The notes under the pieces were generated by a model. The model made no database searches and was not told the DNA's origin. It was given only the letters and a program-made list of their open reading frames with translations. The position numbers were made by a program, and so were the translations under genes. A stretch of 64,000 nucleotides of DNA from contig JASVEC010000025.1 of assembly GCA_030770535.1 (NCBI GenBank), positions 186,001 through 250,000 of the forward strand, given 5' to 3'. The stretch comes from Batkoa obscura (Eukaryota). Shown here in pieces: positions 13,201 to 43,067 of the stretch (positions are counted from its first letter, which is position 1; the number at the start of each line of letters is the position of its first letter).

Positions 13201-15339
13201 TTATAATTTAGCTTTAGTATTTTGAATACTAAATTCCCCTTTAAAATCTTTTTCATTATAAGTTTCCCAATCTTGTGCAATTGGTGAAAGAATTAATCCA
13301 TCGGGAATACCAAAACCTTCAACATAAGTCAACACTTGTTTAGATACAAGTTCCACTTGTTGATTTAAGAGACTAGATAATTGTCTAGCTTGATTTGGAT
13401 GAATAAACTCATGACTCATTAAATAAGTTAAATCCGATTCTAAAGTAGATAAGATGTAAACTTTACATAATTCTTTTAAGGCAAGTCTAAACAAATTAAA
13501 TTAATATTGATAACAATATAACATTAAAACATTTCAATTTTACCTAGTTTCTTTAGATACATTTTGATCTTCAATAGTACGAATAAATTCTAATAAACTA
13601 AAGTATTCCCCATAGGCTTTAGATAAATTTTGAATTAAATCTGATTCCTCTTTCATCCAAATTTGGAAGATATCTTTACCCTCTTTTCTCTTTTGTACAG
13701 TGATTTCACCAAGCTAATTAAAAAAATACATTAGTATTACTTTCATAACCCTTTTCTTATACTCAAATAACTTACTTGTTTAGCTCTATTAGCAAATCTT
13801 AAATTCATAAAATCGATCAAATCTTCCAATTTATCTACTTTCCAATTTTGTGGATTGGACTTATTATTAAACGGAGTAAATTGGAATTTCTTTTGTTTAA
13901 TATCTTCAATCAATTCCTTAGCCGTCTTTTGCATTAAAACCGCATTATCGCCTTCCGCAGTGATACCAGCATGAGAAAATCCAATAACGGATGCAAATGT
14001 AGAATGTTGTAAATAACCTTGACCACCACATCTTTCTCTACAAATAGAACCACAACGTTCTGCATTCCAAGTCACTAAAGGTTTAATAGCACAACATAGT
14101 CGTATGATTTCGGAATAAGGACGTCCTTCTGGTTTAACCCATACTTTTTTAGCATGATTTAAACCAAATTGTAATGCATATGTACGAGCTAATAATGGAA
14201 TTAAGGCTTTTTGCTGAAGTTGAAATTCAAGGATCGGGGTATCTGATTTTCCTGAACGACCAGCAGCCAAACGAGTAGCAGCATAACGTAATGCAATGGT
14301 TAAAGCTAATTTAGCACCCGAAGAATTCATAGAAGCAATACATAAACGACCAGTTAAAAGTTGATCGGCCACTTTAATAAATCGATTTCTACGACCAGCA
14401 ATTTCCGAAGTATAAGTACCATCAGCAGAAACATCGGAATATTTATTTAATAAATTAATTCTTGGTATACGAACGTGATCAAATTTTAATAAAGCATTAT
14501 CCACTCCATCTAAATCTAATTTATTACCCATTTCACGAATAGTTACTCCAGGACAAACTTCATTATTGGGACCATCTCTAATTTTGACAATAAAACAATG
14601 AATCCCTTCTTGCTTTCCTTTAACTTCAAGTTGAGCAAATACAATGGCATATTTGGCATGTTTAGCTCCATTAGTAATCCAGAATTTTTGACTTTTAGTG
14701 GAGGGACTATGAATTATAAATTCTTGTGTTTTTTCATCATAAACTGAGGTGGTTTCCATTTCAATAGCATTATTACCATATCCTAATTCAGTTAATGCAA
14801 AACATCCAGTCGCATCCATATTGTTTACTTCTTTTAATATATCAGCATGACGTTCAGTACCTAATTTTACTAAGGTACCACCAAACTAAAAAAAAAAGTT
14901 TGAATATTATAAAAGATAAAATAAAGTATAAAACTTACAAGATTATAATGAACGGTAAGTTTAGTAGTTGAAGAACCGTTAACTAAACCAGCGGTTTCAT
15001 GAACTAAAATCAAAAATCGATTAATTAAATCAATCATTTATCACAATTAGTTAACTTACTAGCTAATACATTCAATGGATTTTCAATAAAATCAGTCACT
15101 TTGATAAATTTATTTTTACCAATTGCTTTTAATTGTTCAAAAGCTTGTTCTTGTTTTTCATGTTGTAAGCAATTGAATTTAGGAGCAAATAAATGAATAT
15201 TTTCTTGCATAAAAGCTTTTAATCGTAATCGATTTTCACGGTTATCAAAATCTAAAATTTCATTGATTTCTTGAGCATTGAAGCCAGCAGCATCAAATCG
15301 TGGTCGATTGTTGATAAAAGCAGATGAGGATGGAGACAT
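13201..15339 (-). CDS. Peroxisomal acyl-CoA oxidase (multi-exon, PTS1 AKL)
   Basis: Motifs [35 protein letters not shown] and AEGDNAVL. Ends in AKL. Confidence 0.9.
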
Positions 15340-17360: not shown

Positions 17361-18640
17361 ATGTTAAAATACTATTTCTTAATTCCAATATTCCTATTAG
17401 CCACTTCCGCTCATATGGAAATGCGTTTGCCCCCGCCTAGAAGATCCAAATACAACAGTGATTATCAAGCATTAGGAGATATTGATAATGATATGCCTGC
17501 ACCTTTGGGCGATGATGTAAATTTAATTATTATTTATGTCTACAAAGTTAATAACCTTTCATTTAGTTCCCATTCCCATGTCGAGCCACAAAGCCCGGTC
17601 CAGTATATAAAAAATACAAAGCAGGTGAAATGATGGACATCACTTTAGGAGGTAATGCCCCTCACAATGGAGGACATTGTCAATTTGCTCTAAGTTATGA
17701 TGGAGGAGAAAAATGGGTAGTTATACATACTATAGTAAGGAATTGTATGCCCTCAAAAACAGGGCCAATAGAATTTAAGTATCAAGTTCAATTACCACCT
17801 GAAGCACCACCCAGTGATAGCGTAGTATTTTCTTGGAATTGGATCAATGCTAGTGGTGAAAGAGAATTTTATCAAAATTGTATTGATATAGCGATTGAAG
17901 GGGATCCCAGTAGTAAAGGAGTAAAAGGCAAAGAACTATTAGTGGTTAATTTACCTGGCTTTCCTACCATTGAAGAATTTGGTCGTCCTGGTTCTTATGA
18001 TGGCCATAAATTGCTGGATTCTAGAAAAAATATTACAATGGCTAAAGATGGTACTATTGCCCCTACTATAGAAGATAGTAAGCCCCCTCCACCTCCACCA
18101 GCTGCTGCCTCCACTACTCAAGCTCCCCCATCTCCTCCTACAACTGCTGCTTCTTCAAAACCTCCTGCTGTGTCCGTTTCAATTATTACAGTTACTACTA
18201 CTATTGTTGTTACTGTTAATGCTAAAGCCACACCAACGGCAGGTTATGGAATGGATATGTTTAATCAACAAGATGAAAGTCTAAGTAAACCAGTGCAGCA
18301 AATTATTAGAAATGAAGTGAGTGAAGAATCGATCCCAATTTTTAATCAAAAGCAAGAGGGAATCAATAATAATATGGACATTATGAGCCATAACAATAAT
18401 GTGAATGATAATATGAATATGAATAATAGCATAAATGAGAATAACAGTAATAAAATGAATAGTAATAGCAATAGTAAAAATAATGGAATATTAATAATGA
18501 GTCCAGAAACCGAATTAAAAAAACAAGTAGAAAAAGAACTAAGTAAAAAGGAAGGAAGTGGGCTAGTTCGATTAAATAATAGTGTACTAAAAGGTAGTAT
18601 CAAGAATTCGACTTGGTATGATAATTTTACGCAAATTTAA
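17361..18640 (+). CDS. Secreted AA11-like lytic polysaccharide monooxygenase / chitin-active protein (2 exons)
   Basis: Signal peptide followed by His1 (ATSA|HMEM). APHNGGHCQFALSYD, WNWIN..G.REFYQNCIDI, then a Pro/Thr-rich linker. Intron at ~17517-17567. Confidence 0.75.
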
Positions 18641-18761: not shown

Positions 18762-19623
18762 ATGTTTCTCCTCTCCCGTCTAAAAGATACCATACAAATA
18801 GAACCTGTCAATTTAAATATTGATTTTAGTCTAGCTTTGATCAATGAAATTAATAAAAAATACTGCAACCGAGTAAATTTAATCTATGATCACATAATCT
18901 CAGTCAACTAAATAAACTTCAAATTCAAGGTGATCCACAACGTCGGTCTTTGTATCACAGTTTTTGATGTTATAGAACAACAGGATGCTTATTTATATCA
19001 TAGTGATGGTTGCTCTTATGTTAAAGGTAAGTGAATAGATTCTACTTTTTAATATAATGAATTAATTAAACAAAAGAAAATTAAAGTTGAATTCCGAATG
19101 ATAGTATTCCGTCCTTTTATTGGGGAAGTAATCACTGGTAAAGTGAAGTCTATGTCAGATAAGGGTATAAAAAGTAGCAAATTTATTATTTTTATTTTAT
19201 ATTTAGTTTAATTGAATTTAATAGTAAGTCTTGGTTTCTTTGATGATATAGAAATTTTACCAAACTTATTACATGAAGGAACGAAATTGTAAGATTTTTA
19301 AATAGAATAAGCCTTAAATCAATCAGCCTAACTTTACCATTTTATAGCCACACAGATACCCAAGTGTATATATGGTGTAATGAACATGGAAATTATGAGT
19401 GGGAGAAAGGGGAAGAAGTCAAGGTTAAAGTGGAAAAAGAAATCTTTTTTGACGCTAAAAGTACGCCCAATCAACAGGAAAGTTTGGATGAATTTGTTAA
19501 ATCTTCACCGTATCAGTTGGTGGTAAGTTGTTTATTTTTTCAAAAATGTTCTAGGTTTAAATTGAATCCTTTTTTTAGTGCTCCGCTTTTGAAAGCGGCT
19601 ATGGGCTCACTAGTTGGTGGTAA
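18762..19623 (+). CDS. RPC25: RNA polymerase III subunit RPC25/RPC8 (multi-exon)
   Basis: MFLLSRLKDTIQIEP, INKKYCNRVIHNVGLCI, VFRPFIGEVITGK, SLGFFDDI; ends GYGLTSWW*. Confidence 0.88.
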
Positions 19624-21165
19624 ATTGATATTCAATATAGAATGATGTTGTTACTATAGAAGCTTATTCTTTTGACGCTGTAAAGACTTTTAATGAGCAT
19701 TTTTTTAGCTTTTATTCCAGGATTGAGTTTTATTCAAATAAAAATGTATTATTCTGCTATAAAGTTATTGTTTTTAAACTATGTTTATTAAATAAAGACA
19801 AATAATATTTGCTAATAATAATGAATATGACTGTTATAAGGTCTCGAAAAGATAAATATGTAAATCCTTTTCCTTTTATGTTTTGATCCTAATTTAACAT
19901 AATTGGCTTTTATAAATATACTAGCTTTTATAACTTTATAACTCTATAATAGTTAACTTTACAAATAAACATTTGTTTTTATTAGATGAATATGAATTCA
20001 TAAATTTTTTGCAATAATTTTTAATAAAACTAAAGTTGTTTTTAAGCTAGATTTTTGATACTTTAAGCTCAAAATTAGGCAATTTTGTCAATAGGTATTA
20101 ATAAATTGATACTATCAGAAATTAAAATAAACAGCTAAAAAATAAATTTGACACTTATTTAATAACAAAGAAAAATTGAGAAGGCTTAATTATTTTAATA
20201 AAACATACCTTCTGACAAACCTAATTTTATTTCAAATAAACTTAATTTTGTATATTATCATCTTATTATATATATTTTTGATATTAACATTATTATCATA
20301 AAACAAGTTAGTATAATAAAGTACATTTCAAATGGTATAGCTCTTTAAGTGGATCAATTAGAATCTAATATCTTCTATAGCAATACTAGTAACATCAATG
20401 AAAGTTGCTTTTACTTTTAATCAAACAATCCAATTAATTTATTTGCTTAGAACGTTCTTTAAAAAACCCATAACTATTAAAATTATAAAATATTTTGTTA
20501 ATTAAAAAAAACTAAAAACTAAATTTTTAGTTAGAGATGGCAAGGTCAGAGTAGTGAAAGGAGTAGTCAAGGTGTTATCCCATGTTGAGTCGTACCCTTA
20601 AGGGTATTAAAGTGGCGCTTTTGTTATGAAACTGAAGTGAAATAGTAAATCTCAAGTCTGATCGTATAGTAGCTTTTGCTAAAAAAATAAAAAGTATTTT
20701 AATCATTTAATTACTGTAGGTAAATTATACTTGATTAATTTTGTAGAGGGAAGTATAAATTAATGAATATGTGTTATTAAATTTGAACTGAGTAACTAAA
20801 AATGATGCTTTAATAATCCATTTTGGATTGAAAATTCCAATTCATTTGAATAGGAATTATGTCGAAATGTTTGGTACTCAAAAGATTAATAGGATTTAGA
20901 TATTCAATTTGTCCAATTTTAAGTTAAATAGTTAGATGGAATAGAGTTAGATTAGTTAAATTGAAGAGTTAAATGAAATACAATACAAATTATAAGTTTG
21001 GCTTAAGATGAAAGTTTAATATAATATGTTGAGGATTTCTTATTATTGTGATTGTTGGAGCGAAATTCAATATTTAATGAAGATGCCCAAGTATTCATTA
21101 TTTAATAGTAAGATTTGGAAAAAGTCATAATAAATTATCATAATTAATCAAATAATTATCTTATA

Positions 21166-21199
21166 ATATGGTGATGTATTTTTGTGTTTAAGAGTTTTA
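21166..21199 (-). mobile_element. Truncated MITE family end
   Basis: ATATGGTGATGTATTTTTGTGTTTAAGAG matches one terminus only. Confidence 0.5.
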
Positions 21200-21322
21200 A
21201 TGAATTCAAAGTTTGTATTTATTAAAATTTGATATCCTACCCCTAGTATTAATTAAAAATTAAAAATTACTATTTAATATAAAAAATATTTAAAAAGCTC
21301 TAGTTTATTAATTTAGCAAATT

Positions 21323-24300
21323 TTAACTAAGCATATCTTCTCTATCAACCACGTTATTATTCATATTACTTCCATCTTCCAATTGTGAAAAGTTCAAGTA
21401 ATGGGCAGGTCTATGACGTTCGTCATAAAATGGTAAAGGTACTTCTAAACTAAGATGGTATTCCTTATCAGGCTGATGAGAAGCACCTTGGAAATTATAA
21501 TTCCAAATTGAATCAACAGGTGAAAGGAAAAATCCGAAAAACTTGTCTGAAAGTAACATTTGAATACGTTCATAATGGGTTGGTAAGTATCCTGCTGGGT
21601 TAGTACCACTTAAATCTTTGTTGGATGCTCCCCACTCATTACCTGATGGTGTTACTTTGTAACAAGTGAGTGAACAAGAACCTGGTGTAAATGCACAGGT
21701 AATAATTACTGCGGTATCGATATCCCAACCTGGATAAGAACCAAGTAATTTAGCATGTGTAGTAACGTCTTGTGGCGAAAGATGGGGTAACTCATTTGGT
21801 AGAGTATGAATCCAACCTAAAGGTTCAAGGTCATTCAACTGTTCATGTTCTGGTGGATTATTTGGAAGATGCACCATTTGATGGGTGCCCCATTGAGGTA
21901 CCATAACAATGGAACGGATCTCTTTAACTTGTGGATTATCTTTCGGCGAAACACCATACAAAAACCCTGAAATTTGAGTTCGAAGATCAGAAATTATAAT
22001 AAAACGCTTGAGTAAATTTTTAGGCAACACATAAGTATACCCTGAATCCTTTAGATCATCACTAGCAACAAAGATGTGTTGGGTTCTTAATTGGAGATTG
22101 GTGGATGAAATAGCTCTTACTCTCCAATCTGTTTTAGAAGAAAAGGTTTGAGTTTCATACCCAGTTGTGGTGGTAGTAATAATTTCATCTCCATGAATAT
22201 TGTGGGTTTTAGTGGTTACTGCCGTCAGTTGACTTTGCTCTTTAGCTTGTTTTTCGATTTCAGCGATTTGTTGACGTTGAAGCGAAGGGGCTGAAATTTC
22301 CATACCAAGGATAATATCACGGATTTCAGGTTGAGTCAAAGAAGCAACGTTAACATTATTCTTTTTACCATAATCTGCAAGGATAAGATCCTTTAATGCA
22401 ACTTCCACCTTAATCCATTCATCATCTGGTAAAGTAGGCCAGATATGATGTGGTTCAGTGATTGTATTCTTATCGGGACGAAGGATCATTTTAGTCTTAT
22501 CGTTATTCACATGAAGTGCTCTTAAAATCAAAATCAAGCGGAAGAAAGCAGTATATGAAGAAATTGTCTTTAGGAAATCATCATAAAGATTAAACAGGCA
22601 CATCATTGGCTCATTCGCTTTAAGAATAAGATCGCCAAACTTCTCTACTTTGAGACAAGCTTGGAAAGGTAATTGTAACTCAGAACCTTTGATCACAATA
22701 TTAGGGAAATCTAAAAGATGGACCTCAAGTGGGTCTAACATACCCTTACGAGTAACAATGATCTGTCTTGGTTGTTCTTCCACTGGAAGTGAACGAATAA
22801 GAGCAGCTACTTCTTCAGCAGTCTTCCACTTGGCTAACTGACCAAGACGTTTTTGTCCAGCCCATACCGAAGTGTGAATAATCTTAAGGAAGAGTTGACC
22901 AGTACGTGGATTGAAGATAAAGATAGCACCATTGATAGGTTTTGTGGTTAAATTACCTTCAAATGTCTTGTGGATGGTAACACGATAAACATTAGTATCA
23001 TCCACAAACCAAATGATTTGGTTTGAGAACAATTCACCGTAATTTGTTGAGTTAAGGTATGGTTCGGTTGGTTCAGATGAATACAATTGCACACCTTTAC
23101 GAATACGTTCACGGAGCACATAGAGAGCAGGATTAGCTTTAATAATCTTACCCATGGCTTGTTGTGTAAGTGGCTTAAGACCAGGGAACCAATTACCATA
23201 AGCAGAATAAAGATTGTAAGCAAGATCAACACCAATCATCATACCAGTAGGTGAAGGATAGATACTCATATTATCTGTAGTATAATCTAAGAACTTAGCA
23301 CGAGTGTAACGTTCAACATCATGAGAGTCAAAGTCACCCCAACGCAACTGAATATCAATCCAGAATTTTTGAATGGTACCATTATCCATTGAATCCTTAT
23401 TATCATTCAAAAGGGAAGGTCTGGATACACCCCATTTATAACTAGCAAACAAGAGGATATCCGCACATGAACTGTTCATTTTATAACTTTTACGTGGATG
23501 GATCGTTTCTTTTTGTACTGACTCAATTTGCAAGGCTTCGGATTCTTGATCAAACACTTGTACCATATCCATCACTAATGCTTCATGAATTTTTTGCCAT
23601 AAATGTGCACGGAAAATTTGGATCAAGGAAATTTTAAGTGTTGGGATTTTACCATGCATAAAGATACCTGTTAAATCAAGTTGTACTTGGAAACCAACGT
23701 ATACATTTGAGTTATGGACAACGGCATTATTACCAAGTAAAAAGAGTTTGTCGGAATTCTCGTCTAAAGTTATACCACAATATTGGCCTGGACTTCCAGC
23801 CGTTTTAATAACATTAAATTTATATCCAACTGGTAAATATTGAACAACGACTGGGGCCTCTCTGCGTTTGCGATCAATTGACGAGAGACTGAGTACTTTG
23901 GTTAAAGCACTGCAAGGCACAAACGTTACACAGGACTCGAAGCCATTGTCAATTTCACGATTTGACACAGAATATTTGATACCAAGGGAGCGAGCTAGAG
24001 CCAAGGCACCAGTAACAATATTTTGGTGTGCTGAAGTAAATACTACTTTTTGGTATTTTTCTTTGGCTTCTTTGAAATCGTTGTATCGAGTCAACTCCAT
24101 CTTATTTTCAAGCTCTTTATCTTCTGGATTTGCATCAACAACTTCACCATTTGAATCAATTAAACCAGCCAAGAGATTCTCACGGACAGATATAGATTCA
24201 GTAAAAAACCATGTTGGTACAACCTTGGGTTGAGCTCTTTCCATGTTGAGTTGGCACATTAAATTCCATATTTTATTCGTTTTAATTCCTTTGTTAACAT

Positions 24301-27300
24301 TTACTTCTTCAGATACTAATTCTTCAACATTTGATGCTTCAACTCCGATATTATGATATATTACTCTAACACGTTTCATTTGGCTTATATGGTCCTTGTT
24401 ATCAGCATTCTTTTTTGCTGCTCTATCGCCGGTAATCCACAAACCAACAAGCCAGGCAGCATTGTTTACTTCGCTAGCAGGCAAACCTTCTTTTCTACAC
24501 ATTTCTTCAAATTTATTATTTCCGACCAATACTGGTGCTACAAGTTGGTAAGTTAATTGACGGATATTTTCATCCACAAATGAGTATAATTGTGTCTCAA
24601 GTTCCCAAGTAATGGTTGATTTACTCGAGTTGATTAAATTGTCTCTAAATCCTTTTGCAGCTTCAAATGCGTTTGCTTCAGAGTTCTCATAATCTGATAC
24701 ATGAAACGATTTTTTGGTCCAAGTAACCATCTGAATTTCCTCACTGTTAAATTCTTCTGTTCTAAGTGAAGTATAGTTAATATAGAAGGATTCACCAGTT
24801 TGTTCATCTTTAGTTACTTCACCAACAGTCATATGGGTAGTTAAATGTAATAAATGTCTAGAATTACTGGTATACTTAATAAGATCTAATCCCTCTTGAT
24901 TACTTGACTTTTCTTGGCCATGATGTACTTCGCAAACCTCATACATGGTATCTTCGCCTGAGTGAACCCCAGTTACCTTTCTTGGCTTTGAATCCATACC
25001 TAGCACACTGTCTCCAATTTTAATGTCTTTAATAGCACGAATAGAGCCATCAGCCATGTATACAGGAGTAGAAGGAGCAAAACATCTATTAATCGTAGGT
25101 GACCACCAAAGGGTGAAGCGACGATTGGGAATTTGATTCAAACCAGATCTCTGTGCATTTGTAAGCTTCTTGTATTTCATACTTTCTTCGAATCCAGAGT
25201 TATGCACTACCATACTATCTGATCTTAAGAATCTTTGGTTACCGTCAACTAAGAAACCATAGTATTCTTGAGGTTCAGTCATTTTAATTGAAACAATTGG
25301 AACAAAGAATTCTTTGATGGCTACTGCATTGGTATCTGAATTGATACTGTTTTTAAGATTCTCATCAATATATAAAGCTGGATCAGCTTCAACCTTTTTA
25401 AAGTCTGTCTCATTAATATAAACAAACTTTTCGCTTTGATTAACAGCAACTTTATAAAGAGACCAAATAGGTTGAACATGTTGAGGCAACGAAAGTAAAT
25501 CCCTTACAGTTGCTTCAATCTGGTAAGTTTTAACTGTAGCAGAAGTTGTTTCTAAATGTTTCAAGAAATTGGCACCTGCATCACCTGCTTCTTTTTTAGT
25601 TTGAAGTTCTTTTTCTCCAACCTTGAAGCTCATAGAGCAGTATCCACTATTGTACCAATAGACAGTATAAGAAGATGAATCTTCGCTCCAGGACATAACC
25701 GCCTTATTTGAAGAGACTAAACATAAAATATGGTTACCAGTAACAGTTAAAGCTTCACCAACATGAGGTAAAATCTCATACAATGGTGCAACACCTTGAA
25801 CAACTTCCTTAATATTACGCGGTAATTGATCATCGCCCATTAGTTTATCATTCACACTAACATCTTTAGCTAATTTTATAGATCCATCTTGGAGCATAAG
25901 TGGGGTAGCACCAGAGAAACAAGCTTTTTCCCAAAACAGACCTTCCCAAGTAGGGAAGTAAGTACCTTTAAACAATGTGTGTTCTAAAATACCTTCAACA
26001 CCGCCCAAGGCTTGAATCATATCGGTACGATAATTATTTAAGTTCCAAAGTTTACCATCGTGGCGTTGATGGGTCCACCAGAATGGATTATTTTTAAGTA
26101 TCTGATACTGTTTGAAATCAGTACGAACACGCCATCCTTTATCATAGGCAAGAGTATGTCGATCCTTTTGGAATAAGGTATTGATTCTAGGGATACCTCG
26201 ATCCCAACTATCTTCCAAATCTTCAAGAGTAAGTCGACGATTTTGTGCTGTAGCTTCTTGACGTTTCAAAGCATATTCTGCCCATACACGTTGCGAATCA
26301 ATAAACTCAGATTCCCAAGGTTGGAGATAACGGAATAAATTAGGAATCAAGGTATCTTCATCATGGGACATACCAGATCTAAAATGAGTGATACCAGTTT
26401 CAGTTTGACGTGACCATCTAAGGTCGGATTGTGGGATAAGTACATGGCCCATAGACAACATCCCCAAACCACCCAATTCCTTTGGACAATTGTGACCAAT
26501 TAAAAAGTCACCATGGCAGAATAATTGTGATTGTCCTTTTTCTACTTGAAAACCGTAATAGTCATCAACTGCTTCAGCTTGGCTGGAGATGTCAAAGATA
26601 TGACAATTGACTTTTGAAGTGGTCGACTTCATATTTGCAAATTTAACAAATTTACAAGACAACGCATCCAAATCGCCATTTAAATATACTTTTCCTACAT
26701 ACTCGGTAGAATCCTTGCCTTTGGTCTTTGTAGCAATAGTAGATAAACCAAGGGATCGACCCAATTCATAGACTAATTTTAATATGGGCTCATTTAAATC
26801 AAGGTTTTTAATGAAAACATACCCATCATCTTGAACTTGACCACTTGAATCAATTAAACCTGCAAGTAAAGCACGACGAACATAGCCAGGCTCTTGGACA
26901 AAACGTTCAATTTCACTGTAATCATTAATTGTACTGTGGTCTATACACATCTTCGTTAATAAAGCCTTAAATATTTCGACATCGATGTTCTTATTGGTTG
27001 AAATGGTTGATTTTGTAAATCTAGGGCTACCAAGGTGTGCTCCGATTGCCCAAGCATAATCTTCAGCAGAATCCTTATTAAGCTTGTTTTTAAAGCTATG
27101 GCAAGAATGTAATAAACTTGGTATGCTTCTATTTTTGCTTCCAATCGGCCATTCTTCGATTGAAGTACTATATCTCATCATACATGGTAAAACTTTGATT
27201 CCTGCTTTTATCATTTGTGATCTATATTTATTGTATTCATTTACGCTTACAATCCATTCATTAGAATCTGACAAACCTTCAACGGCATTCATAATCACTT

Positions 27301-30300
27301 CATCAATATTATTTTCATGCTTCATATATGTTGCATAATCAAATTCTACCAACTTTTCGATTTCAAATGGACGGGCCAATTTAAGCATGGAATCAAACTT
27401 AAGTTTCCAATAATATACTTTATAAACTACGTTGGATTGGTTAGCCTTAACTTCCTCAATATCATAAAAGCATTGTACAACTCTTGAAACCTTTGGAATC
27501 TGTAAAACTAACAAATGGTTTTCATTACATAAAAATCCAGGCTCAAACAATAGCTCTTCATTATAAGCACAATTTAAAGCCTTTGAAAGTTTAACTCTAT
27601 ATAATGGTGCAGTGCCTGAAACTAAATGTTCTACTCTACGAATTTTACCATCATCACCAAGCACTTGATTTCCAACTTTGATTTCTTCAATTAACTTTGT
27701 GGTACCATTAGCTAAACGTATAGGCATCCCCTTACCATAACAATAGAATACAACAGGTGGGAAACGGCTAGGCATTTTAGAGTTAAGACCGATTTTTACA
27801 CGGGTTTGAATCTTTGATTCGCTCTTAACCAAAAGATCTAAGATTTCACGAGTATGTACCACTGCTTCACGATAATAAGTCATTAATCCAATCAAAGCTG
27901 TATTCCATTTGTTGACAATCTTTGAAAAGGTGGTGGATCCAGAGGACATTAATATTTGACGGATACGATTATTGAAACGTTGGATAGACTCATCATCCAC
28001 CCTTAAAAAGGCTTGTGCAGTACGTTCTTTAGTTTGTTCATTAATTAAATTCCATACACCATCTTTAAGTGAAAATGTTTCTTCCTTTGCACGAATCTTT
28101 GGTAAAATTCGAACTTCAAATCCACACATGGAGAATAGAAGATTAGGATTATCTCTTGAGTAAACACTCACAAATGTTTCTTCCCAATCAAGGGTTGTAA
28201 CTGATCTTGGTAAACGATTTTTCATATCCCAAAAAGTAGCACGGCCTAAATTGACATCATGCTTCATCAAACGCATTCTACAATCACGTGGCCAGCACTT
28301 TTTATTATTGTAACCAACGATGTTTTCATTATTAGGATCCGGGTGCTCTGTTAAATATCGTTGAATCAAATCTCTTGATTCATCAGCACTGAATCTGAAA
28401 AGTATATAAATACGATCTATATAACGAGAATAAAGCCTTATTGGATGTTTGGTTTCAGTAGGAACATCTCTAAATTGCAAAAAATCATTTGGTAGTTGAG
28501 GTGGTCCAGCCATTTCAGATGCTCTTTGTAAACCAAGAAGCAATAAATCCAAGACTAAGCCCCAGAATTGATAAATAAACGAAGCAAATTGTAAACCACG
28601 AATTAAACCATAAGAATTTAAATGATTCATATCCTTATAATTAAGGACAACATTATTCTTTGCTGACATATAATCGGCTAAATTATGATCTAAGATTAAA
28701 CGTAAAAGTCTATTCAAAACTGTAATATCCACTTTCTCATATACTTTGTTGAGCTTTGTTTCTACCATTACATTACATTCACCTTCAGATGTTTCCCAAA
28801 TATCAGTAAGATTGTTAATTCCTTGACACCATTTGTAAGTAAGTAATGGAGGAGGTTCATTATCTGATGGTTTGATCCATGCTGGGAAGAGATGACGCTT
28901 ATCAGCTTCATACCAAAGATATTGATCAAGGTAGGCATCAGTAATCTTTTCCATTGGTTCCACGTCATAAACTGGAATAAGATGAGAATATAAATCCATG
29001 AACTCAATTCCTACTTCTTTAAATGCCCTTTGGGTCAAAAGTAAACGTTTAATTCTAGAAAGAGCTTCATGAGGATTATCATAAGCTTGTTCAATTAAAC
29101 CGAGTTCTTCACGTTGAGATTGATTCAAACGTCCTTTTACAGAGTATGCTTCTCTTAAACGTTCAAGAGCAAGGATCAACAACTTGGTATCATGTTTATA
29201 TGAAAGTGGTGGGAAAGGAATTGGAGTGAATTTTCTTGATTCAAGCCAGTGCACTGTTGAAGTGAAGATTGCAACAGCTTCCTCAGGAGAAACATAAGGA
29301 CCATCTTTAAGATAATTATGTTGTCTTTCTTGCTCAGCCTTGAGCCACAGTCTGGTTAAACGTCCTAAATTCTTTTTACATACTGTTTTATCAACTGTTG
29401 CTCCTCTACGGATACGTTCACGATTATAATGGGCTACACTGGTCCACCAATCAGCTTTAGATTTGACATAACGGAGGATCATATTTTCTATAGGTGTAGG
29501 CAAACCTGGTACTTTCCATGGAATATTGGCTTTCCAACAATTGTGGGCAACAATGAAATTTCCAAGTAAAAAGAGGGGGTCTCTACCGTCTAACTCGAAA
29601 CCAAAGTATTCACCCTTATTTGAAACTTCAGTGATATCAAATTGGTTATTGTTGTTGTCTTCTATAGCTACACCTTCTCCTTTCAATTTGTTTACAAAAG
29701 GAAGGGTTGAAAATTCCCTACCAAAAATATTAATCTGTTCTTCTCCATTTGATACAAATAAACCAAGAGATCTTGCAACTTGTACTACTAATTGTTTTAA
29801 AATAGGACTGACTTCATTGACTTTAATCTTAAACTTTAAATCAAGTTGATCGATACTAGATGGCAATGATTCTAATATACCGGCTAACATATTCGAACGG
29901 AATAGCTTTGATTGATTCATAACACATGAAGCTAATAAATCAGGAGAAGCAAACTCTCTCAATTTGTTTATACAATCCCATGCCATACTTCTAACACTTG
30001 TACTACTATTGGATTCTTCTATTCTAGTAGACGAAGCAAATTGCTGACCAATAGCATAAGCTACTGAGTTAATTGGTGCTGGAGTTTGATCTAATTCATC
30101 AGATGCTTTGAAATGTAAATTATGAATAGCTTGTTCTAAATCTAATTCTGAGGAATACGGGAATTCGTTGACAGGTTGACGAATCATAGTGAAAGTAAAA
30201 GAGGAGTGAAGAAGAGTTTTGGAAAACTTAACATAATTAACTGAAGAAACTTCCCATCCAGTATTCAGAATGGTTGAATGGTCTTTTTGGAGAGCTTTAA

Positions 30301-32926
30301 TTGCGCTTGGCTTGTCTTCAAACCTATATATTATAACTGGATGATTTTGTTTTAACTTAACGCTAGAACTGTCACCCCACGTGTATACTGATCCAACAAC
30401 AGATGGTGCCTCAAACCCAAGTTCCTCGTTATATTTGATTTGAGGATGATAAAAGGCAGCATATTTCTTGTTAGAATCTTTAGGCATAATTATATTACCT
30501 GAAGTAGAGCAATTAAGGACTAAAGTATGTTCATCATTACATGTAAATAATTCTTCCTGAGTCTCTTTATCACTGAACTTATATAAAGTTGAATGGCCAT
30601 ACATTGTATCCTTCACTCTTTTTGGTTTCTGATCTTTACCCAAAACTCTATCTCCAATTTCAATGTTTTCTACACATTTTAAGTTACCATCAGCCATCAT
30701 AACTTTAGTTCCACGAGCAAAACAACGCCATGCTTCACTGAGATGCTGTAAAATGGTTTTAGATTTATTAGCAGAAATACCTTCAGGCATCATATCTGTA
30801 ATATCATGCATTACTGCAGCACGGAGTTCAAGATCATAGTGGGATTCCACTCTCTGCTTAGTGACCGTTTTAGCAATACCTTTAGAATGACGACCTTCAA
30901 ATTGACGAGCAAGTAAATTACCAAGCCAGCGTTCAAGAAGTGGGACAATACCACGTAAGAAAAATAACCATACTCTCCATCCTGGAGCCCAGAAACCACA
31001 ACCAGGACCTTTACCAACTGGCCCAGTATTAAATCTATAGTAGATCAAATGTTTTAAATCCTTGGTGAGACGGACTTGTCTCATTAATTTATATTTGTAA
31101 CGATACATACCAGTAAGTTGACCAACATGGGCAAAGATATATTGAAGACCATCAGCCAATTGGAAAGCGTCAACATTGCCCAAACGATACTGTACATGTG
31201 AATCAACCACAAGCTTAGTAAGCCTTAAAATTTCACGACAAAGATGAAAAGCATTTCCGAAACGAGATTTCTTACGCTCTTTAGTTGTTAAAGTTTTAAT
31301 AGGCTTTAAATTGAAATTATAATCAAGATGGAGATAATTCAAATTTTTACGATGGATTAATAAATTTAACATATTGTAACCTTGACGACACACTTGTAAC
31401 CCTGCTTCTACCCAATCAAGATCGGTGATTTGGAAAAACTTGGTTGCTTTCAATTGACGGAATAAGTATTTTTTGTTTAATGCTTTAGGTTTACGATGCT
31501 TCAAGACATTCAAAACATAACATTTCAGTAACTTTTGGTAAGAAACACGGACTTTTACGGGTTGATCTGGTGGACAATGCTCTAAGTACCAATTTTTGAC
31601 AAGTGGGATATCTTGAGCACGTCTAGTATTACCTGAACGCTTATCGAAAGGGTGAGGGGCCCAGTAAAGAGCGATAGCATTTGAAGTATTATCAGTGTAA
31701 AGTGGAGCATCTTCAAAGAAAGGAGTTACATTTTCTGATAAAGAGAATTCGAGATCTTCATCTTCGTCACCAAATATACTTTGTTCATGTAATCCAGAGA
31801 TGCTTTTATCTTCGAAATCACGTGTAGAAATTGGGTTAATAATAGGATCAAAATAAAATGTAGGTAATTGAGGGTCATCATTACGAATGTAAACAACAGT
31901 TGGATAATGATACCATGAAACATGAACTGCTCTTGGTAAGGAATTATATAAGAATGGGAAAGCAATCTTATACTCAGTACGAATTTGTTGACGAATGATA
32001 ATCTTATTAATATCATTAAACTCATTCCAATCTTCATCAGCTGGGTCTAAATCTCTATATAAAGGCTCAAACTTGGGACCACCTGGAATAGCTAAATTGA
32101 GTGATTTAGCAGTTATAAAAGAATTGACATCAAAAAGATAAAAGTAATTTTTATCATTGAGATCAGATAAAAGTTGATGTGCTAAACGGTACAACGCTGA
32201 CATGATTGGAAGATCAAGACTCCATTTACGGTAAGTATCACCATTGATGAATTTTGTGCCAAGGAGTGGTTTATGGTCATAAAACCATTCATAAACTGCG
32301 CTATCTTCTTCCGGATCTAATTCCATTTGAATAGGCTCAAGAGGATCGACATCTAATATATTGTCACCATAATCTAGTGGAGGTTCTTCATCATCAAAAG
32401 GAGGGAAACGCATACGTTTAAAATGACGACGATCTCTCTTTTCTCTACGCATCATAATCCACATGGTACCCCATTGAGCAAGGTAGATTGGCTCAACCAC
32501 ACGAGGTACCTCATTAACGAAAGTGATAGCACCAGTGATATGATACAAAACTGGGACTTCCCTTTCTTGTTCCCAGGGCATAGGCATGTTTTCTAACAAC
32601 TTTAAAACGGCATGAGGGATATATTTAAGGGCACCCAAATAGATACGCTTATCATGGCGAAATTTTTTCGAAGACATATCACCATGGTCTTTAATGATTT
32701 TTCTAACGTGCTCCGGCGGCATCTTTTGCTTTTCTTGTTCAGCGAACCCGAATTTTCTTTTGTCGCCATAACGTTTTGAGTTCATTTGTTGCCATCTCTT
32801 GGCCTTTTCTTTGATTTTTTCAAGAAATCTAGCATTTTGAGTATCTAAAAGGTTATCCTCAGAAGCAGCAACTTGATAAGGATAATAATTTGAATTATTA
32901 GGAGTAGAATCTCCTTGTTCAGTCAT
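21323..32926 (-). CDS. PRP8: Pre-mRNA splicing factor Prp8 precursor with four inteins (3867 aa precursor, ~2355 aa mature)
   Basis: Highly conserved Prp8 sequence ([12 protein letters not shown]/linker, RNaseH-like, Jab1/MPN), interrupted by four Hint-domain insertions. First ATG at 32926; the ORF track starts at an upstream TTG. Confidence 0.98.
23711..25084 (-). mobile_element. PRP8 intein 4 (458 aa, VMA1/PI-SceI-like; [10 protein letters not shown]...VVHN|SNVY)
   Basis: Cys1, [16 protein letters not shown] and [23 protein letters not shown]...[11 protein letters not shown], +1 Ser. Confidence 0.95.
25199..25921 (-). mobile_element. PRP8 intein 3 (241 aa mini-intein at the canonical fungal site; FWEKA|CFSG...[10 protein letters not shown])
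   Basis: Cys1, block B VTGNHIL, terminal HN, +1 Ser. No LAGLIDADG motif. Confidence 0.96.
26489..27742 (-). mobile_element. PRP8 intein 2 (418 aa; [10 protein letters not shown]...LIGHN|CPKE), LAGLIDADG remnant
   Basis: Cys1, [18 protein letters not shown], terminal HN, +1 Cys. Removal restores PPVVFYCPKELGG. Confidence 0.95.
29540..30724 (-). mobile_element. PRP8 intein 1 (395 aa; [10 protein letters not shown]...IVAHN|CWKA), degenerate LAGLIDADG
   Basis: Cys1, block B TCNDEH, terminal HN, +1 Cys. Removal restores [15 protein letters not shown]. Confidence 0.95.
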
Positions 32927-33965: not shown

Positions 33966-35150
33966 TTATGGGTTATGTAAATAGCTATGATGTTCATGTT
34001 GAGATCCATAAACGACAGAATCATGTTTAGGATAAGTTAAATAATCGTTAATAGGGGGGAGATAATGTTTGGAGCTTCCATTCTGTATACTATTACTCAC
34101 CATCTGTGGTGGTGTTTTTGGGTCTTTGGATCCAACAGCCTGCCTTGAAGTTCCACAACAATTACTTAGGTGAACTGTTGGTGGATGACAGCTCGTATTT
34201 TCTGGTGACTGAGTAGAAGTTAAAAATGATTTTGAGCTATCAAATGAGTGAGGGTTACTAGTATATTTTCCATGATAGTCACGCTTGGTAGGGTAGTAAG
34301 GAAGTCCTTGCTCGATTGGCTGAGTGCTATTTAAGTTGGTCAGCTCAGGTCTTAAAGATGGGGCAGAATAAGAGTTCTCTCTACTTCTAGTGGCCCCATG
34401 CCTTATCCTGTACTCTGGTGGGTTTCTAGAATGACTATAAATAGGCTCAAAGGATGCAGTATTATTTATAAGATCTTGAGTGTCGTATAGAAGTTCATTA
34501 GCTAATTTTCTTCTACGACTTGCTCTGTCATCATAATCATTTAAAGTATCTTGCAACATGTATTGAAAAGAAGATATCAGTTTCATTGCATTTTTTTGAA
34601 ACTTTACATTTTGTTCAAATTGTTGTTGCAATTTAATAATAGTTTCATTCTGCGAAAATACCATTCTTTCTAAATCTTCTATTTTACGGGTTAACTGTTC
34701 GGAGGTCCCAGTTGAAGGTCTAGTTTCGGGCATATAACTTTGGGATAGATCTTCGCCGATTGGGGTGCTATCCTTATTTTTTTCTTCTTTGGATGGTGGA
34801 CGATAAGCCTTTCTTCTTATTTTAACAAAGAGTTCAGGGGTGTCGCGTTGAAAATCTGGATGCTTGAAATCCCATGAACAGGTAGTAGATGACAAATGGA
34901 AAGCGTCAGAGAGTTTGGTAAAACCATACATATTAAGTTGACGAACGAAACTTTGCCAGTTCCCATGCTTGAAGTAGTTAGGTAACACCTTACTGCAAAA
35001 TTGACTCAAATCTTTAACACCAAATGACTTGCCATCATCGCTCCAGCATATTAAGCTATGATTGCTACTATTTTGTAAGATGGTGTATAGTTTTTCAACA
35101 AAGGTAGGGACGGTATAATTATCTTGGGAATTGGATTGCTTTTCTTTCAT
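33966..35150 (-). CDS. HSF-type DNA-binding transcription factor
   Basis: PTFVEKLY..LICWSDDGKSF..LPNYFKHGNWQSFVRQLNMYGF, followed by a coiled coil. Confidence 0.92.
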   Translation of the reverse strand: MKEKQSNSQDNYTVPTFVEKLYTILQNSSNHSLICWSDDGKSFGVKDLSQFCSKVLPNYFKHGNWQSFVRQLNMYGFTKLSDAFHLSSTTCSWDFKHPDFQRDTPELFVKIRRKAYRPPSKEEKNKDSTPIGEDLSQSYMPETRPSTGTSEQLTRKIEDLERMVFSQNETIIKLQQQFEQNVKFQKNAMKLISSFQYMLQDTLNDYDDRASRRRKLANELLYDTQDLINNTASFEPIYSHSRNPPEYRIRHGATRSRENSYSAPSLRPELTNLNSTQPIEQGLPYYPTKRDYHGKYTSNPHSFDSSKSFLTSTQSPENTSCHPPTVHLSNCCGTSRQAVGSKDPKTPPQMVSNSIQNGSSKHYLPPINDYLTYPKHDSVVYGSQHEHHSYLHNP

Positions 35151-36511
35151 TTTAAAATTTAAAAAATAACTAAAAACTTAAAAAGCTTCAAAATAAAAAT
35201 GAGTTATTTTTTAAAGTTTCTAGAAGAGTCAATCATTCTGAACCAATGTTTAGCTAATTGGTTGACACGGAACCTTCCCTCCTTTATTAGTAATCTTTGT
35301 TTCTAATTTGCTCAATTTTTTCCAATAACATGCAATAGCAATATTCCCTCAATTATAGAATAACAATGATTTTCTAGAAGGAATCATTTAAGGAATCATG
35401 ATTTAATAGCCTTATTTCTCTAACTTATTCTTTTAATATTTCCTCAGAATAGAATTTATTAGGCCAATTAGATATGTTATAACTATCTTTATATTTTTTA
35501 ATTGGTAGATTAATAATGACTTTAACTTTTAATTAATAACCACAGTTATTAATTTATATAAATATTAAGAAAAGAATAAATAAAATGGAAGTAATGGTCG
35601 AAGGCATTGTCCGCTTTTATGTTCTTTATTTTTAAATAAAACATAATAGATAAGATAGCATAGAAGTCATTTATTTAAATAAAAGTAAACAAAGGAGATG
35701 TAGTAACAAAAAGATTCGAAAATGAGATGATAATGCTATTGGGTGAAGTGATGTTGAAGATCAACTGATGACTTAACAACAGAACATTTTATGGTATTTA
35801 TTCTATTTTTAGATTATCTGAGTAGAAAGAAAGAATTAATCATTTAATAGAAAATTTCAAAATCAACAATAAAAAATAATGCTTAAGATTATTATAAAGA
35901 TTCAATACATCAAAATGATTTGAACGATATTTTTGGAAGAAAGTTTTAATAAACCTGTTTGTTTAATTTATCTATTAGATTTAAATTAAAGATTGCTTAA
36001 TGTATAATTTTAGATGAAAATATTATTTGTAAGAGACTGTTTTAATCAAAACTTTTGTTTGCCTTTTAACCTTGGCAGACTTGGGATCTTAATTAGATAA
36101 AGTGATTTTACAAGCTTTAAATTTGAGGAAAATAAAACATCTTTGGAATAAGTTTATCTAACTGGAGTGTCTAGTCATGCAGGTAAATTATCTAACTTAA
36201 GGAATTGGCTATTTTAATATTATCAGTTTTATTTGTAGAATAAATCGAATTTCACATAATTTTCAGTAAAAATATTGTACAACATTTAAATTTTTATTTG
36301 GACTTGTATTAATAACCTAGCTTTTCAATATTATTTTTCCACTTGTTCGAATTTATGCTAATTTACTATATTGAATTATAATATAAAACATCCAAAAACG
36401 ATATCTCGTTTTATCTAAATACTGGTTATGATATTATTAAGTATAGAAACTATTTTCTAAGTTACATTAACTAGGAATATTTAAATATCACTAAGCATCA
36501 AATGCTAAAGA

Positions 36512-37410: not shown

Positions 37411-38325
37411 TTAAAACGAAAGTCTATGTCTGATTTTGCGGAATAATAATCTTAATTCCTTATTAATAGCAGTATGCATCGTTAATACCAATAATGAATT
37501 AAGTAAGATACCTGTAGTAGCTAATAAAGTAGCAGCTGAACTAATACCAATAATAGTTGAATCATTAAACGGGGTAAATAAACTTAAGCTACTTTCAGTC
37601 AAATAAAAGACCATAGCACTAAACATACACATAGCATACAATAGAATTAACAATATAATTCTATAAAATGCTAACTTTAAATTTAATCTTTTTTTATTAG
37701 AATTATTGGTATTTAATTGAGTTGTATTGCCTTCAATCGGTATAAATTTATCTAATTTATAGGTATAGATCGCTAGCTTCGAATAACAATAAATGATAGT
37801 TATGGCACTTACTAAAGTGATGGTGATAAAATAATAAAAAGTGATCGTTGAAACAGTAGACTTAAATGGGAATATAAAGCATATAATACCACTTGCATTG
37901 GGTATAAATTCCATTGAGAATGCTAAATAGCTTGATAATCCAATATAAAGTAAAGATAATATAATTACAATAAGGATCAAATAGTTATTATAATGAAATT
38001 TCATGATATTGGAGTAACGTTCAATAGCTAATAAAGCATTAAAAATAATTTGTAGAAATAAAACAAGTACTGAAAAGAAGCCTAAATATTGACATAAATT
38101 GGGAGTTAAAATAGCATCATTATCATTTATCGTTGTTATAACAACATCCGTGACCCCTACAAATGGAGCTATTAATTCAATGATCGCTATTACTTGAATA
38201 TACTTAATATCACGCGTTATTGGTCGTACTTTGACTGATAGATGTAATAATAAGATATCTAAAATCGCCGATATTACAGTTATACCTACAGCTACAAATC
38301 CAGCTGGATTTAAGTTCGGCATCAT
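37411..38325 (-). CDS. 7TM rhodopsin-like GPCR paralogue A
   Basis: Seven hydrophobic segments, CQYLGFF at TM3 start, LAIERY, extracellular loop 2 Cys. Confidence 0.75.
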   Translation of the reverse strand: MMPNLNPAGFVAVGITVISAILDILLLHLSVKVRPITRDIKYIQVIAIIELIAPFVGVTDVVITTINDNDAILTPNLCQYLGFFSVLVLFLQIIFNALLAIERYSNIMKFHYNNYLILIVIILSLLYIGLSSYLAFSMEFIPNASGIICFIFPFKSTVSTITFYYFITITLVSAITIIYCYSKLAIYTYKLDKFIPIEGNTTQLNTNNSNKKRLNLKLAFYRIILLILLYAMCMFSAMVFYLTESSLSLFTPFNDSTIIGISSAATLLATTGILLNSLLVLTMHTAINKELRLLFRKIRHRLSF

Positions 38326-39465
38326 ACTCTTTTATTATTAATATATTATTATTGAATAAAATAAAATCAATTTTAAATTGATAAAGAAATATCATTCTTT
38401 TTATTCTTAAGTTTACTTGGTTGCCATTAAGTTTATTTATACCACCTTGCTTTGTTTCAAACTATTCTTTATTTATTTATGGTAATCATAAATTTTCATT
38501 TTGTTTATATCGATTATCATAATTATCATATATTTTTGAGTGGCTGAGGTTTTGAGAATAATAAATATTAGAAACAAATAGTATTAAAAGTCTAGCTTTT
38601 GCTTTTTTTTATATCCACTTCTTTTTTTATTGGGGTTTTTTATGCCCAAGACCAAACATATTATACTATTTATTGAATTTAGTCTAAATCTATTATTTTA
38701 ATAAATTAGCAATAAAATAATATATTGACTGTAACCAAGTTTAAACCTTATTTATTTATTTGTATATATTATAAATGTTTCAAAGCATTCAAAGACAAAT
38801 ATCAGCTTCAATAAATATTTACATTTATCATTTATAGTAATTTGCTAATTATTTTAAATATAGAAAATTATTATTCTTGAAATAAATACACCATATTTCG
38901 GTGTGCTTTTATCAAAAAAATCGGGTTTTATTGGGTTGATTTTTATGTGGTAGTGCTTTTTCATGCATATATTAAATAGTATATTGTTGGCTGCAATAGT
39001 AGATGTCTTTAACGTCTAAAAACAATACTGAATTTAGTGTTAATTTCTTCGACTGTTGTAATAGCTATTTGATTCTTTTTGATCACCTTTTTACTTGCAT
39101 GAAGATTCCCAAAACATAAAAACCAAGCTAATATTAAAAAACATGAAATCATGTTCAATCAAAAGATTCCAACTATTGAGCTACTTAAGGCAAATGAGGA
39201 AAACAGTGAATGTCTCACAAAACTTTTATCAGTTTTATTTTTGACAATAACATTGTTATCCTTTAATATAAACGTATTATAAAAGGATGTATAAGTTAAT
39301 ACCATAGTTAAAACAAGTTGTAAATTGTAGAGTGTAATTGATTATGTTGGATGACAAGCCTCTTTTTAAGTTTTTCTAGCTTTCCATGATTTGCTCTAAA
39401 ATTTCAAAAATAATGGAGTTTTAAATTCATTTCGTTAAAATTTTTTCAATCAATCCAAACTCAAG

Positions 39466-41686: not shown

Positions 41687-42592
41687 TTATCTCCTCCTTC
41701 TAAACATTCTTTTAAACAGCTCTTTAAGTTGATTATTAATAATCGAATGTGTAGATATAACTAATAGTGAATTGAACAAAAACCCAAATGCAATAAAGAT
41801 GACGCCAGCAGTACCAAAGATATAATTTAATTTCAGATCTTTTTTTTCATAAAAAAAACAAGCATCAAGTAATATAAAACAAGCCCCTAAAAATACTGAA
41901 ATAGAATAAGAGATTAATATACCATGAATTTTTAATTGAACTAGTTTTTGACTCCAAGGTCGTTGGATTTTATCTTTTGGTAAGCTAAAGTCTGAGTTGT
42001 TTTCCATCTCTATAAATTGAGTCAATTGACTTGTATAAAGGGCTAATTTGATATAACAAGTGGTAATTATAATTAAGCTCACTAATGTTGAGATAATGAA
42101 ATGATAAAAAGTGATTGCAGATAATATCGATTGATTAGGATAAATCATACAAATAACTTTTGCTGGCTGAATGATAAAATGATGTTGATAAGCCAATATT
42201 ATAGTTAAAGTTAAGTGGATTAATATTGATAATATTCCAGCTAGAAAATAATACTTTCGATAATCTAATTTACACACTTTAGCTAATCTTTCTAAAGCTA
42301 AAAAGGTGGATACAATTAGTTGAGATAAAGCTAATAACATAGTAAAAAACCCTAAATATTGGCAGATTGCTGGGTCATTGAAAGCATCATCATCTTTTAT
42401 TATGCTTAAAATAGGATCAGAGATAGCCACCAAAGGTAACATCAATTCTATACTTGCTATCGATAATATCAATTTTATATCGGTTGAGTAATTCTTGACT
42501 TTCACAGATAAGTAAATAAGTAATATGTTAACAATAGCTGAGATTAATCCAATAATATTGGCCACATAGCCAAATGGGTTTTCGTTGATCAT
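41687..42592 (-). CDS. 7TM rhodopsin-like GPCR paralogue B
   Basis: Aligns with paralogue A (NP.G.VA, SVKV, CQYLGFF, LALER, NSLLV..H..IN). Confidence 0.75.
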   Translation of the reverse strand: MINENPFGYVANIIGLISAIVNILLIYLSVKVKNYSTDIKLILSIASIELMLPLVAISDPILSIIKDDDAFNDPAICQYLGFFTMLLALSQLIVSTFLALERLAKVCKLDYRKYYFLAGILSILIHLTLTIILAYQHHFIIQPAKVICMIYPNQSILSAITFYHFIISTLVSLIIITTCYIKLALYTSQLTQFIEMENNSDFSLPKDKIQRPWSQKLVQLKIHGILISYSISVFLGACFILLDACFFYEKKDLKLNYIFGTAGVIFIAFGFLFNSLLVISTHSIINNQLKELFKRMFRRRR

Positions 42593-43067
42593 TAAGTAAT
42601 TAGATTAAAAATGAAAATGTAAGTTGTAAGAAATAAAAAATAAAAAATAAAAAATAAAATAGTTTACTTTATGTTATTAGTAGTAACATTTACTAAATAG
42701 TTCTTTAATTGAAATTCAATTAAATCTTTTCCATATTTAGTAAATACATTTTGATTTTATTTCTTGATTTTAGAAGTTTATTTGTTAGTTTACAATTTAA
42801 GTTTTGCATTTTTTTTGAAATTGTTTTACTAATTCAAGTGTTATTAAATATTAAATAATTAAATATTAAATAATTAAATCAACTAATTTATTAGTTGATT
42901 AATTAGAAATTAATTTTTTCTAAAAGTAGCATTTCCATTTCTAATTTGCCAATTTGAAAATTAATATTCATTTAATAAAATATCAATCATTAAACAAGTT
43001 GATAGAAAATTCCATTAAAAAAAATTAATTACAACTTAACATTAATAGTATTATAGTATTTTACTCT

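Follow-up and report, generated by a model that had tools for sequence, protein, structure and literature searches.

How many inteins can a single protein carry and still be made? The question is raised by the PRP8 gene of Batkoa obscura, which is located in a stretch of 64,000 nucleotides (contig JASVEC010000025.1 of assembly GCA_030770535.1, positions 186,001 to 250,000 of the forward strand, hereafter the window) and encodes the spliceosomal protein Prp8 interrupted by four inserts. With a probability of about 0.86, the gene is translated into one precursor of 3867 amino acids (aa) from which four inteins likely excise themselves to leave a Prp8 of 2355 aa, and the inteins are likely old parasites that are dead as homing elements.

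Four inserts in one reading frame

PRP8 is an intronless open reading frame (ORF) on the minus strand (32926-21323) without any internal stop, in which Pfam recognises all Prp8 domains together with four Hint stretches. Its predicted parts are given below with insertion points marked by a slash; the yeast and human positions of intein 3 were counted back 38 residues from the fourth site.

21323..32926, minus strand: PRP8 coding sequence including the stop codon, 3867-aa precursor (ORF and Pfam)
30725..32926, minus strand: extein 1, 734 aa, PRO8NT and PROCN, C-terminal end EAWR
29540..30724, minus strand: intein 1, 395 aa (aa 735-1129), site b EAWR/C, yeast 792, human 719
27743..29539, minus strand: extein 2, 599 aa
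26489..27742, minus strand: intein 2, 418 aa (aa 1729-2146), site e VVFY/C, yeast 1390, human 1318
25922..26488, minus strand: extein 3, 189 aa
25199..25921, minus strand: intein 3, a mini-intein of 241 aa (aa 2336-2576), site a WEKA/S, yeast ~1579, human ~1507
25085..25198, minus strand: extein 4, just 38 aa, separating inteins 3 and 4
23711..25084, minus strand: intein 4, 458 aa (aa 2615-3072), site TINR/S, yeast 1616/1617, human 1544/1545
21326..23710, minus strand: extein 5, 795 aa, U6-binding, domain IV, JAB and PROCT; first residue Ser, usually Ala
21292..21322, minus strand: short 3' untranslated region up to the poly(A) site of two RNA runs of a relative

The inserts had been placed at 30724-29540, 27742-26489, 25921-25199 and 25084-23711 by an earlier reading of the bare sequence (the original prediction), and these coordinates prove exact by translation and alignment. 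As it had also described, every insert starts with Cys, ends in His-Asn and is followed by Cys or Ser, the +1 residues being Cys, Cys, Ser and Ser in order. The block B His and block F are present in all four by alignment and Pfam, and the profile search for Hint domains that had been proposed as a check is positive throughout, with Hom_end_hint matching each insert separately (E values of 7.5e-25, 4.6e-22, 1.1e-18 and 3e-48). A stop-free frame would arise by chance with a probability of 1e-8 to 1e-14 per insert, and the two other frames contain 15-62 stops. Together the inserts amount to 395 + 418 + 241 + 458 = 1512 aa or 39.1% of the precursor, in agreement with the approximately 39% claimed, and their guanine-cytosine content, both overall (GC) and at third codon positions (GC3), is like that of the exteins. 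A six-frame profile scan of the 64-kb window found a Hint domain nowhere outside PRP8.

Excision was expected to leave a seamless Prp8 of about 2355 aa. The exteins do sum to 2355 aa and no gap opens at their junctions in the alignment with intein-free Prp8 of fungi and animals, with the refinement that two junctions are one residue off the animal sequence: the +1 residue of the second site is Thr in animals and Cys in the window, and that of the fourth site, usually Ala in intein-free Prp8, is Ser. The exteins share 99% identity over long stretches with an NCBI protein of Neoconidiobolus thromboides (P0022) and 87.5% with Entomophthora muscae, which places the host in the Entomophthorales near N. 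thromboides.

Class 1 inteins splice through an N-to-S acyl shift at Cys1 that is aided by the block B His and followed by attack from the Cys or Ser at +1; the terminal Asn then cyclises, and an S/O-to-N shift ends the reaction. Judged by sequence, the four inserts are likely canonical class 1 cis-splicing inteins and splicing is predicted for each of them. It is proposed that the precursor would be translated whole and that its four Hint domains likely fold and carry out one cis-splicing reaction each, yielding the 2355-aa Prp8 and four free inteins. The view of the original prediction that four cis-inteins would all need to be excised is supported by the motifs, the modelled fold and the RNA contigs.

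The stretch is contained in 13 sequencing runs, and X1, X2, X5 and X7 from three studies were analysed (15 of 38 joints and 32 of 1094 pieces displayed), X5 being a DNA run. X1, X2 and X7 show GT..AG skips in a neighbouring gene at 19020-19578, which are absent from X5. X1 and X2 have a poly(T) loose end at 21292, 31 nucleotides beyond the PRP8 stop, and intergenic depth in X7 is 0.2-3.4 versus 40.9. In X7 a single contig of 7560 nucleotides (21300 to 28861) bridges inteins 4, 3 and 2 with 275 differences and 3 gaps, and a second contig (28864-30547) covers the 3' junction and 1008 of the 1185 nucleotides of intein 1; a 3-nucleotide deletion within intein 3 in the same run preserves the frame. 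The expectation that the inserts remain in the mRNA is thus borne out in RNA runs of relatives, for inteins 2-4 on one contig and for intein 1 in part. All displayed joints that skip an intein have the depth of an approximately 80% identical contig (X2 record 11, X7 record 24), which points to the intein-free Prp8 of another organism.

That the inserts are spliceosomal or self-splicing introns is implied by the NCBI gene model of N. thromboides, whose product P0022 is 2331 aa long and lacks the insert bodies. P0022, however, retains intein stubs at 4/4 junctions, where they corrupt conserved motifs, and one false GT..AG pair on the window DNA reproduces two of these four stubs exactly. Exact removal with GT..AG or GC..AG ends is possible for none of the four inserts, and the inserts stay in the RNA contigs, so that an intron origin is extremely improbable. 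Taken together, the stubs and the reproducible false introns suggest that the N. thromboides model likely removes the same four inteins as false introns and thereby conceals them. An assembly chimera of differing alleles or organisms, which had been named as a possible refutation, could appeal to the presence of more than one allele in the runs of relatives, but one contig from an independent study spans three inteins, P0022 bears stubs of all four, two Coemansia proteins include the same four-site set, and the GC and GC3 of inteins and exteins match. A chimera is barely credible on this evidence, and both RNA-level removal and chimeric assembly are rejected.

The published sites and TINR/S

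Insertion sites were mapped on an intein-free reference (P0101) and compared with the available portions of PMC6805012, PMC10710043, PMC5784728, PMC3749507 and PMC1635734, to which all statements on published sites and counts below refer. Site letters are inconsistent between papers, PMC10710043 pairing b and d with motifs opposite to Monier 2013, and are anchored here on species records and text. The described sites are a (WEKA/S) and b (EAWR/C) of Batrachochytrium (PMC3749507), e (VVFY/T) and f (FLDY) of Capsaspora (PMC3749507, PMC5784728), c (LEVH/C) of Spizellomyces, g (AFHL/C) of Acytostelium, d (VMDL/C), which lies 87 residues C-terminal of a, and AKWK/T of Anaeramoeba (PMC10710043). Inteins 1, 2 and 3 occupy b, e and a, the combination of a with b being that of Batrachochytrium (P0016) and that of b with e being that of Capsaspora (P0074 and the Green 2018 supplement). 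The comparison with published lists that the original prediction had called for therefore places three inteins at known sites, but it also reveals what had gone unnoticed, namely that TINR/S is not among the eight described sites (a-g and AKWK/T), with site figures, Anaeramoeba Dataset S1, large supplements, InBase and most subscription journals outside the comparison. TINR/S lies within the loop 1615-1624, whose reported remodelling leaves Tyr1620 stacked on the RNA that is bound to U5 loop I (bioRxiv 10.64898/2026.01.21.700889).

By sequence and modelled fold intein 4 is a member of the VMA1/PI-SceI family. It comprises full-length Hom_end_hint and Hom_end domains in a predicted PI-SceI fold, and can be aligned with PI-SceI over its entire length (E 6e-41), whereas the Cryptococcus Prp8 intein gives E 3e-4. 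The AlphaFold2 model of intein 4, the only fold predicted among the four inteins, has a predicted local distance difference test score of 89.9 and matches PI-SceI with a template modelling score of 0.78 (E 2.5e-31). The Saccharomyces VMA1 intein PI-SceI/VDE (PDB 1dfa, 1lwt) is thus alike over its full length and in modelled fold, whereas intein 4 sits in Prp8 and both of its catalytic aspartate positions are altered. Since its host is Prp8 and not V-ATPase subunit A, intein 4 is a relative of the VMA1 intein rather than an allele. When VMA1 inteins are compared with those of all Prp8 sites the top score falls at TINR, and in a search of 1.84 billion representatives the best non-Prp8 relatives of intein 4 are the intein of an Ariadne-type ligase, VMA1 inteins and free-standing HO-like proteins.

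The first of these relatives is found in the ENA protein P0126 (aa 238-808), an Ariadne/RBR ubiquitin ligase in which an intein of the VMA1 family, its block E motif intact, precedes a Cys of the second RING; this ligase is possibly an undescribed intein host. P0125 from Radiomyces and P0131 and P0291 from Mortierella are free-standing Hom_end or Hint plus Hom_end proteins of HO-like type, some of which NCBI calls V-ATPase A; these are possible domesticated or orphan inteins.

The distribution of TINR inteins was followed in 121 Prp8 proteins, composed of the best 120 of 2826 Prp8 matches and the window protein, a set that is biased to intein-rich proteins. A complete TINR intein is present in 14 of them (the window, 12 Coemansia and one further protein) and occurs in Kickxella too. 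All 14 form one clade (support 1.0), and in a second tree TINR inteins fall among VMA1 and other non-Prp8 inteins with values of 84-95 in the Shimodaira-Hasegawa-like approximate likelihood ratio test. The +1 residue is Ser in 14/14 occupied alleles; in the 103 other rows of the extein alignment, which left out four proteins, it is Ala in 93, Ser in 4, Cys in 3 (two of these being truncated inteins), Lys in 1 and a gap in 2. Ser or Cys at the empty site occurs in 4/33 lineages, a level reached by 9/63 other invariant Ala positions, and being not unusual it is no proof of past intein loss.

Two alleles are present within intein 4 (window 24190-24610) in X1 and X5, one of which differs from the window at 34 of ~400 nucleotides, a divergence exceeding that of the listed extein pieces.

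Decay, persistence and origin

The aspartates D218 and D326 of PI-SceI are catalytic. In intein 4 the corresponding positions are occupied by Gly and Asn, respectively, intein 2 contains a LAGLIDADG remnant with Ser at the D326 position, intein 1 has a nuclease remnant that is sub-threshold in Pfam, and intein 3 has no nuclease domain. An active LAGLIDADG homing intein would have an acidic residue at the end of both LAGLIDADG helices; the block E acid is retained in 0/4 window inteins and in 0/14 TINR inteins. All four inteins are on these residues likely immobile. Were one or more of them still capable of homing and of moving from strain to strain, the whole PI-SceI fold that the model of intein 4 appears to keep and its two alleles in X1 and X5 (up to 34 in ~400 nucleotides apart) would be accounted for; however, the catalytic positions are altered in inteins 2 and 4, the domain is a remnant or absent in 1 and 3, and an empty allele of this organism is not found among the displayed joints, which makes continued homing quite improbable.

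The residues required for splicing, by contrast, are all kept in the four sequences while the nuclease parts have decayed. Prp8 is essential and intein sites are located at its active centre (PMC6805012), and selection would therefore retain the splicing residues as the nucleases decay. The inteins may thus persist because they must splice and because exact deletion is hard. Intein 1 is divergent, its top summed BLAST score to another intein being 120 bits, and this leaves some room for the proposal that at least one insert is unspliced and tolerated, or only cleaves so that Prp8 is in pieces. Given that every splicing residue is kept despite nuclease decay and that the insert sites are at the active centre, this proposal is very improbable.

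A different explanation for their retention is that the inteins splice but are kept as stress-sensitive switches, with several Cys-dependent steps gating the supply of spliceosomes. The site-a intein of Cryptococcus responds to copper and zinc (PMC6805012), and by analogy with this metal-sensitive intein a regulatory role is possible, in line with the post-translational control point that the original prediction had put forward as a possibility; the persistence of inteins without working nucleases and the position of sites a and TINR in catalytic-core loops would also suit it. Occupancy is patchy however, as close relatives and many fungi are without given inteins, species differ in their site sets as would be expected of parasites, and the need for exact deletion may explain persistence without any benefit. 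A switch is therefore an unlikely explanation, and old, homing-dead parasites remain the preferred one.

Trees suggest that the four inteins arrived separately. Intein 3 is sister of the Entomophthora site-a intein (0.79) and intein 2 falls within a 23-member site-e clade (0.95). In one tree intein 1 lies with inteins that Glomeromycota carry at other sites (0.81), in the second its companions are site-b inteins (67). The nearest relatives are thus same-site inteins for a and e and are unstable for b. Inteins e and TINR fall with the same-site inteins of Kickxellomycotina, and intein a with that of Entomophthora. The TINR lineage likely derives from the VMA1/PI-SceI family via a jump into a new host gene, and invasion of this site would have depended on Ser at +1, where Ala is usual, whether this Ser was there before or was carried in with the intein.

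A number of observations weigh against a precursor with four self-excising, immobile inteins of this history. Protein splicing, though likely, is predicted from sequence, a model and RNA contigs of relatives. The RNA data are assembled contigs of these relatives (~96-99% identical) and not raw reads, the RNA label of the runs was guessed and DNA may be mixed in, and the 5' junction of intein 1 is bridged by none of the displayed pieces. Intein 4 has an Asp one residue past the D218 position and a Lys equivalent to K301, which makes residual nuclease activity conceivable. The trees rest on 121-130 columns and the placement of intein 1 shifts between them, the data fit vertical inheritance and past horizontal homing alike, and Entomophthora is without inteins b, e and TINR.

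Intein load in zoopagomycete fungi

Several inteins in one Prp8 are known from Batrachochytrium with two, Capsaspora with three (PMC3749507) and Anaeramoeba ignava with five, four having been the earlier maximum for any protein (PMC10710043), so the window alone sets no record. The original prediction had put the maximum at two per gene, which Capsaspora and A. ignava contradict, and had suspected an unreported extreme, which finds no support in view of the five published inteins and of the 17 proteins among the 121 examined that have at least five. The four inteins do exceed two, the published fungal maximum found (Batrachochytrium).

The Prp8 of A. ignava BMAN (PMC10710043) resembles that of the window in carrying several inteins including those at a, b and e, but belongs to a metamonad and has site d and AKWK/T where the window has TINR/S instead. 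Capsaspora owczarzaki (P0074) shares EAWR/C and VVFY/x with window sites 1 and 2, but its three inteins are at b, e and f (FLDY), without a and TINR, and its +1 residue at site e is Thr versus Cys in the window. The fungal PRP8-a inteins of Cryptococcus (6mx6, 6mwy), Batrachochytrium and E. muscae (P0018) share their site with intein 3, itself a mini-intein, and group with it; published fungi have one or two Prp8 inteins per gene versus four here.

Further parallels are Kickxellomycotina models from Coemansia, Kickxella, Dimargaris, Dispira, Smittium and Mycoemilia, which have homologous inteins at b, e and a. TINR is common to the window, Coemansia and Kickxella at 30-41% identity. These models carry two to ten inteins each and up to 13 unlisted sites, and their displayed names omit inteins; the counts are those of database gene models known from protein sequences alone. 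Not counting six inserts that fail the motif test, at least four canonical inteins are present in 28 of the 121 proteins and at least six in 10. The Prp8 of Mycoemilia scoparia (P0084) has 10 inteins, two of them only 13 residues apart, and is 6458 aa long, 64% of it intein. Two Dimargaris species have nine inteins with all nine sites in common (P0002, P0003), a third has eight (P0026) and Dispira has seven (P0020). Without their inserts the top four models are all 2342 aa long. Across the 121 proteins there are 19 insertion sites, 13 of which are outside the published lists, and a Prp8 search among proteins of 4112-5000 aa gave 15 matches, 14 of them named Kickxellomycotina.

Inteins of Dimargaris, Coemansia, Smittium, Mycoemilia or Neoconidiobolus are the subject of no paper found in the literature available, most subscription journals being outside its scope, and the accessible supplement of PMC5784728 lists no Coemansia, Conidiobolus or Smittium. 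The sole paper found that joins inteins with these taxa treats, in its available part, other Hint proteins (PMC8778642). A report of a natural protein with over five inteins was likewise not found in the literature searched. Multi-intein Prp8 is therefore known, and what is new as far as the literature was searched is the unlisted VMA1-type site and a lineage-wide load of up to ten. There are good grounds to regard zoopagomycete Prp8, with up to ten inteins and at least 13 undescribed sites, as the most intein-loaded protein known. A fuller reading, in which some of these sites came with a rewritten host residue and the homing-dead inteins, including the VMA1-type one in the Tyr1620 loop, are retained to gate the supply of spliceosomes serially and in response to stress, is unlikely.

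'Immunity' substitutions at empty sites were considered and dismissed: measured on residues invariant in animals, changes within 4 residues of such sites in the window (8/130) compare with 110/1363 elsewhere (p 0.65), and Mortierellaceae, whose sequences are related, was alone among 11 groups in reaching p 0.008. Loss of the +1 Cys was dismissed as well, at 3/6 empty sites in the window versus 2/9 other Cys (Fisher p 0.29; p 0.14 over 35 lineages). The three losses concern the empty sites QIRx, LLVK and d, where the residue is Thr, Ser and Val, respectively, instead of Cys, and are not significant against other Cys; Val at +1 of site d cannot support splicing there. At empty WYEA, c, NTLF, WWTH, NPHE and KWNT intein-free fungal alleles often have Cys, Ser or Thr at +1, unlike animals. 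For WYEA the frequency is 5/33, which 0/89 other Asp positions attain, in a post hoc comparison of lineages that are not independent. Such residues may record earlier occupancy or may be a prerequisite of invasion.

The remainder of the window contains a number of ordinary genes:

9349-11184: spermidine-synthase-like membrane protein
13743-14885: acyl-CoA oxidase
33966-35177: HSF-type factor
51460-52158: Rad4
52501-53625: FMN dehydrogenase
54956-55804: alanine-racemase-fold enzyme

The small, intron-rich gene at 18800-19630 on the plus strand, whose introns are spliced in the RNA runs, presumably resembles that of the RNA polymerase III subunit Rpc25. Upstream of it at 17567-18640 on the same strand is a Pro/Thr-rich ORF of 357 aa that has no match in Pfam. 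A short high-copy repeat is located just beyond the 3' end of PRP8 (21160-21203), where the X5 bin depth is 9407 and many loose ends occur. Two intronless paralogous ORFs on the minus strand (37411-38331 and 41687-42604) encode putative seven-transmembrane proteins whose weak 7tm_1 matches are below the cut-off.

For the biology of Prp8, the window thus adds, as far as the literature was searched, a site past the eight described, which is occupied by a VMA1-family intein and belongs to a loop in contact with the RNA at U5 loop I. It also draws attention to a fungal lineage whose predicted Prp8 proteins carry up to twice the published intein maximum of any protein. As gene models can conceal inteins as false introns, proteome surveys would undercount them. 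The natural series of one to ten inteins in one essential protein may be used to ask how many serial splicing steps are tolerable, whether inteins 13-38 residues apart interfere with each other and whether homing-dead inteins are of benefit. Unrelated inteins that would work in one chain may in addition be a source of orthogonal splicing parts.

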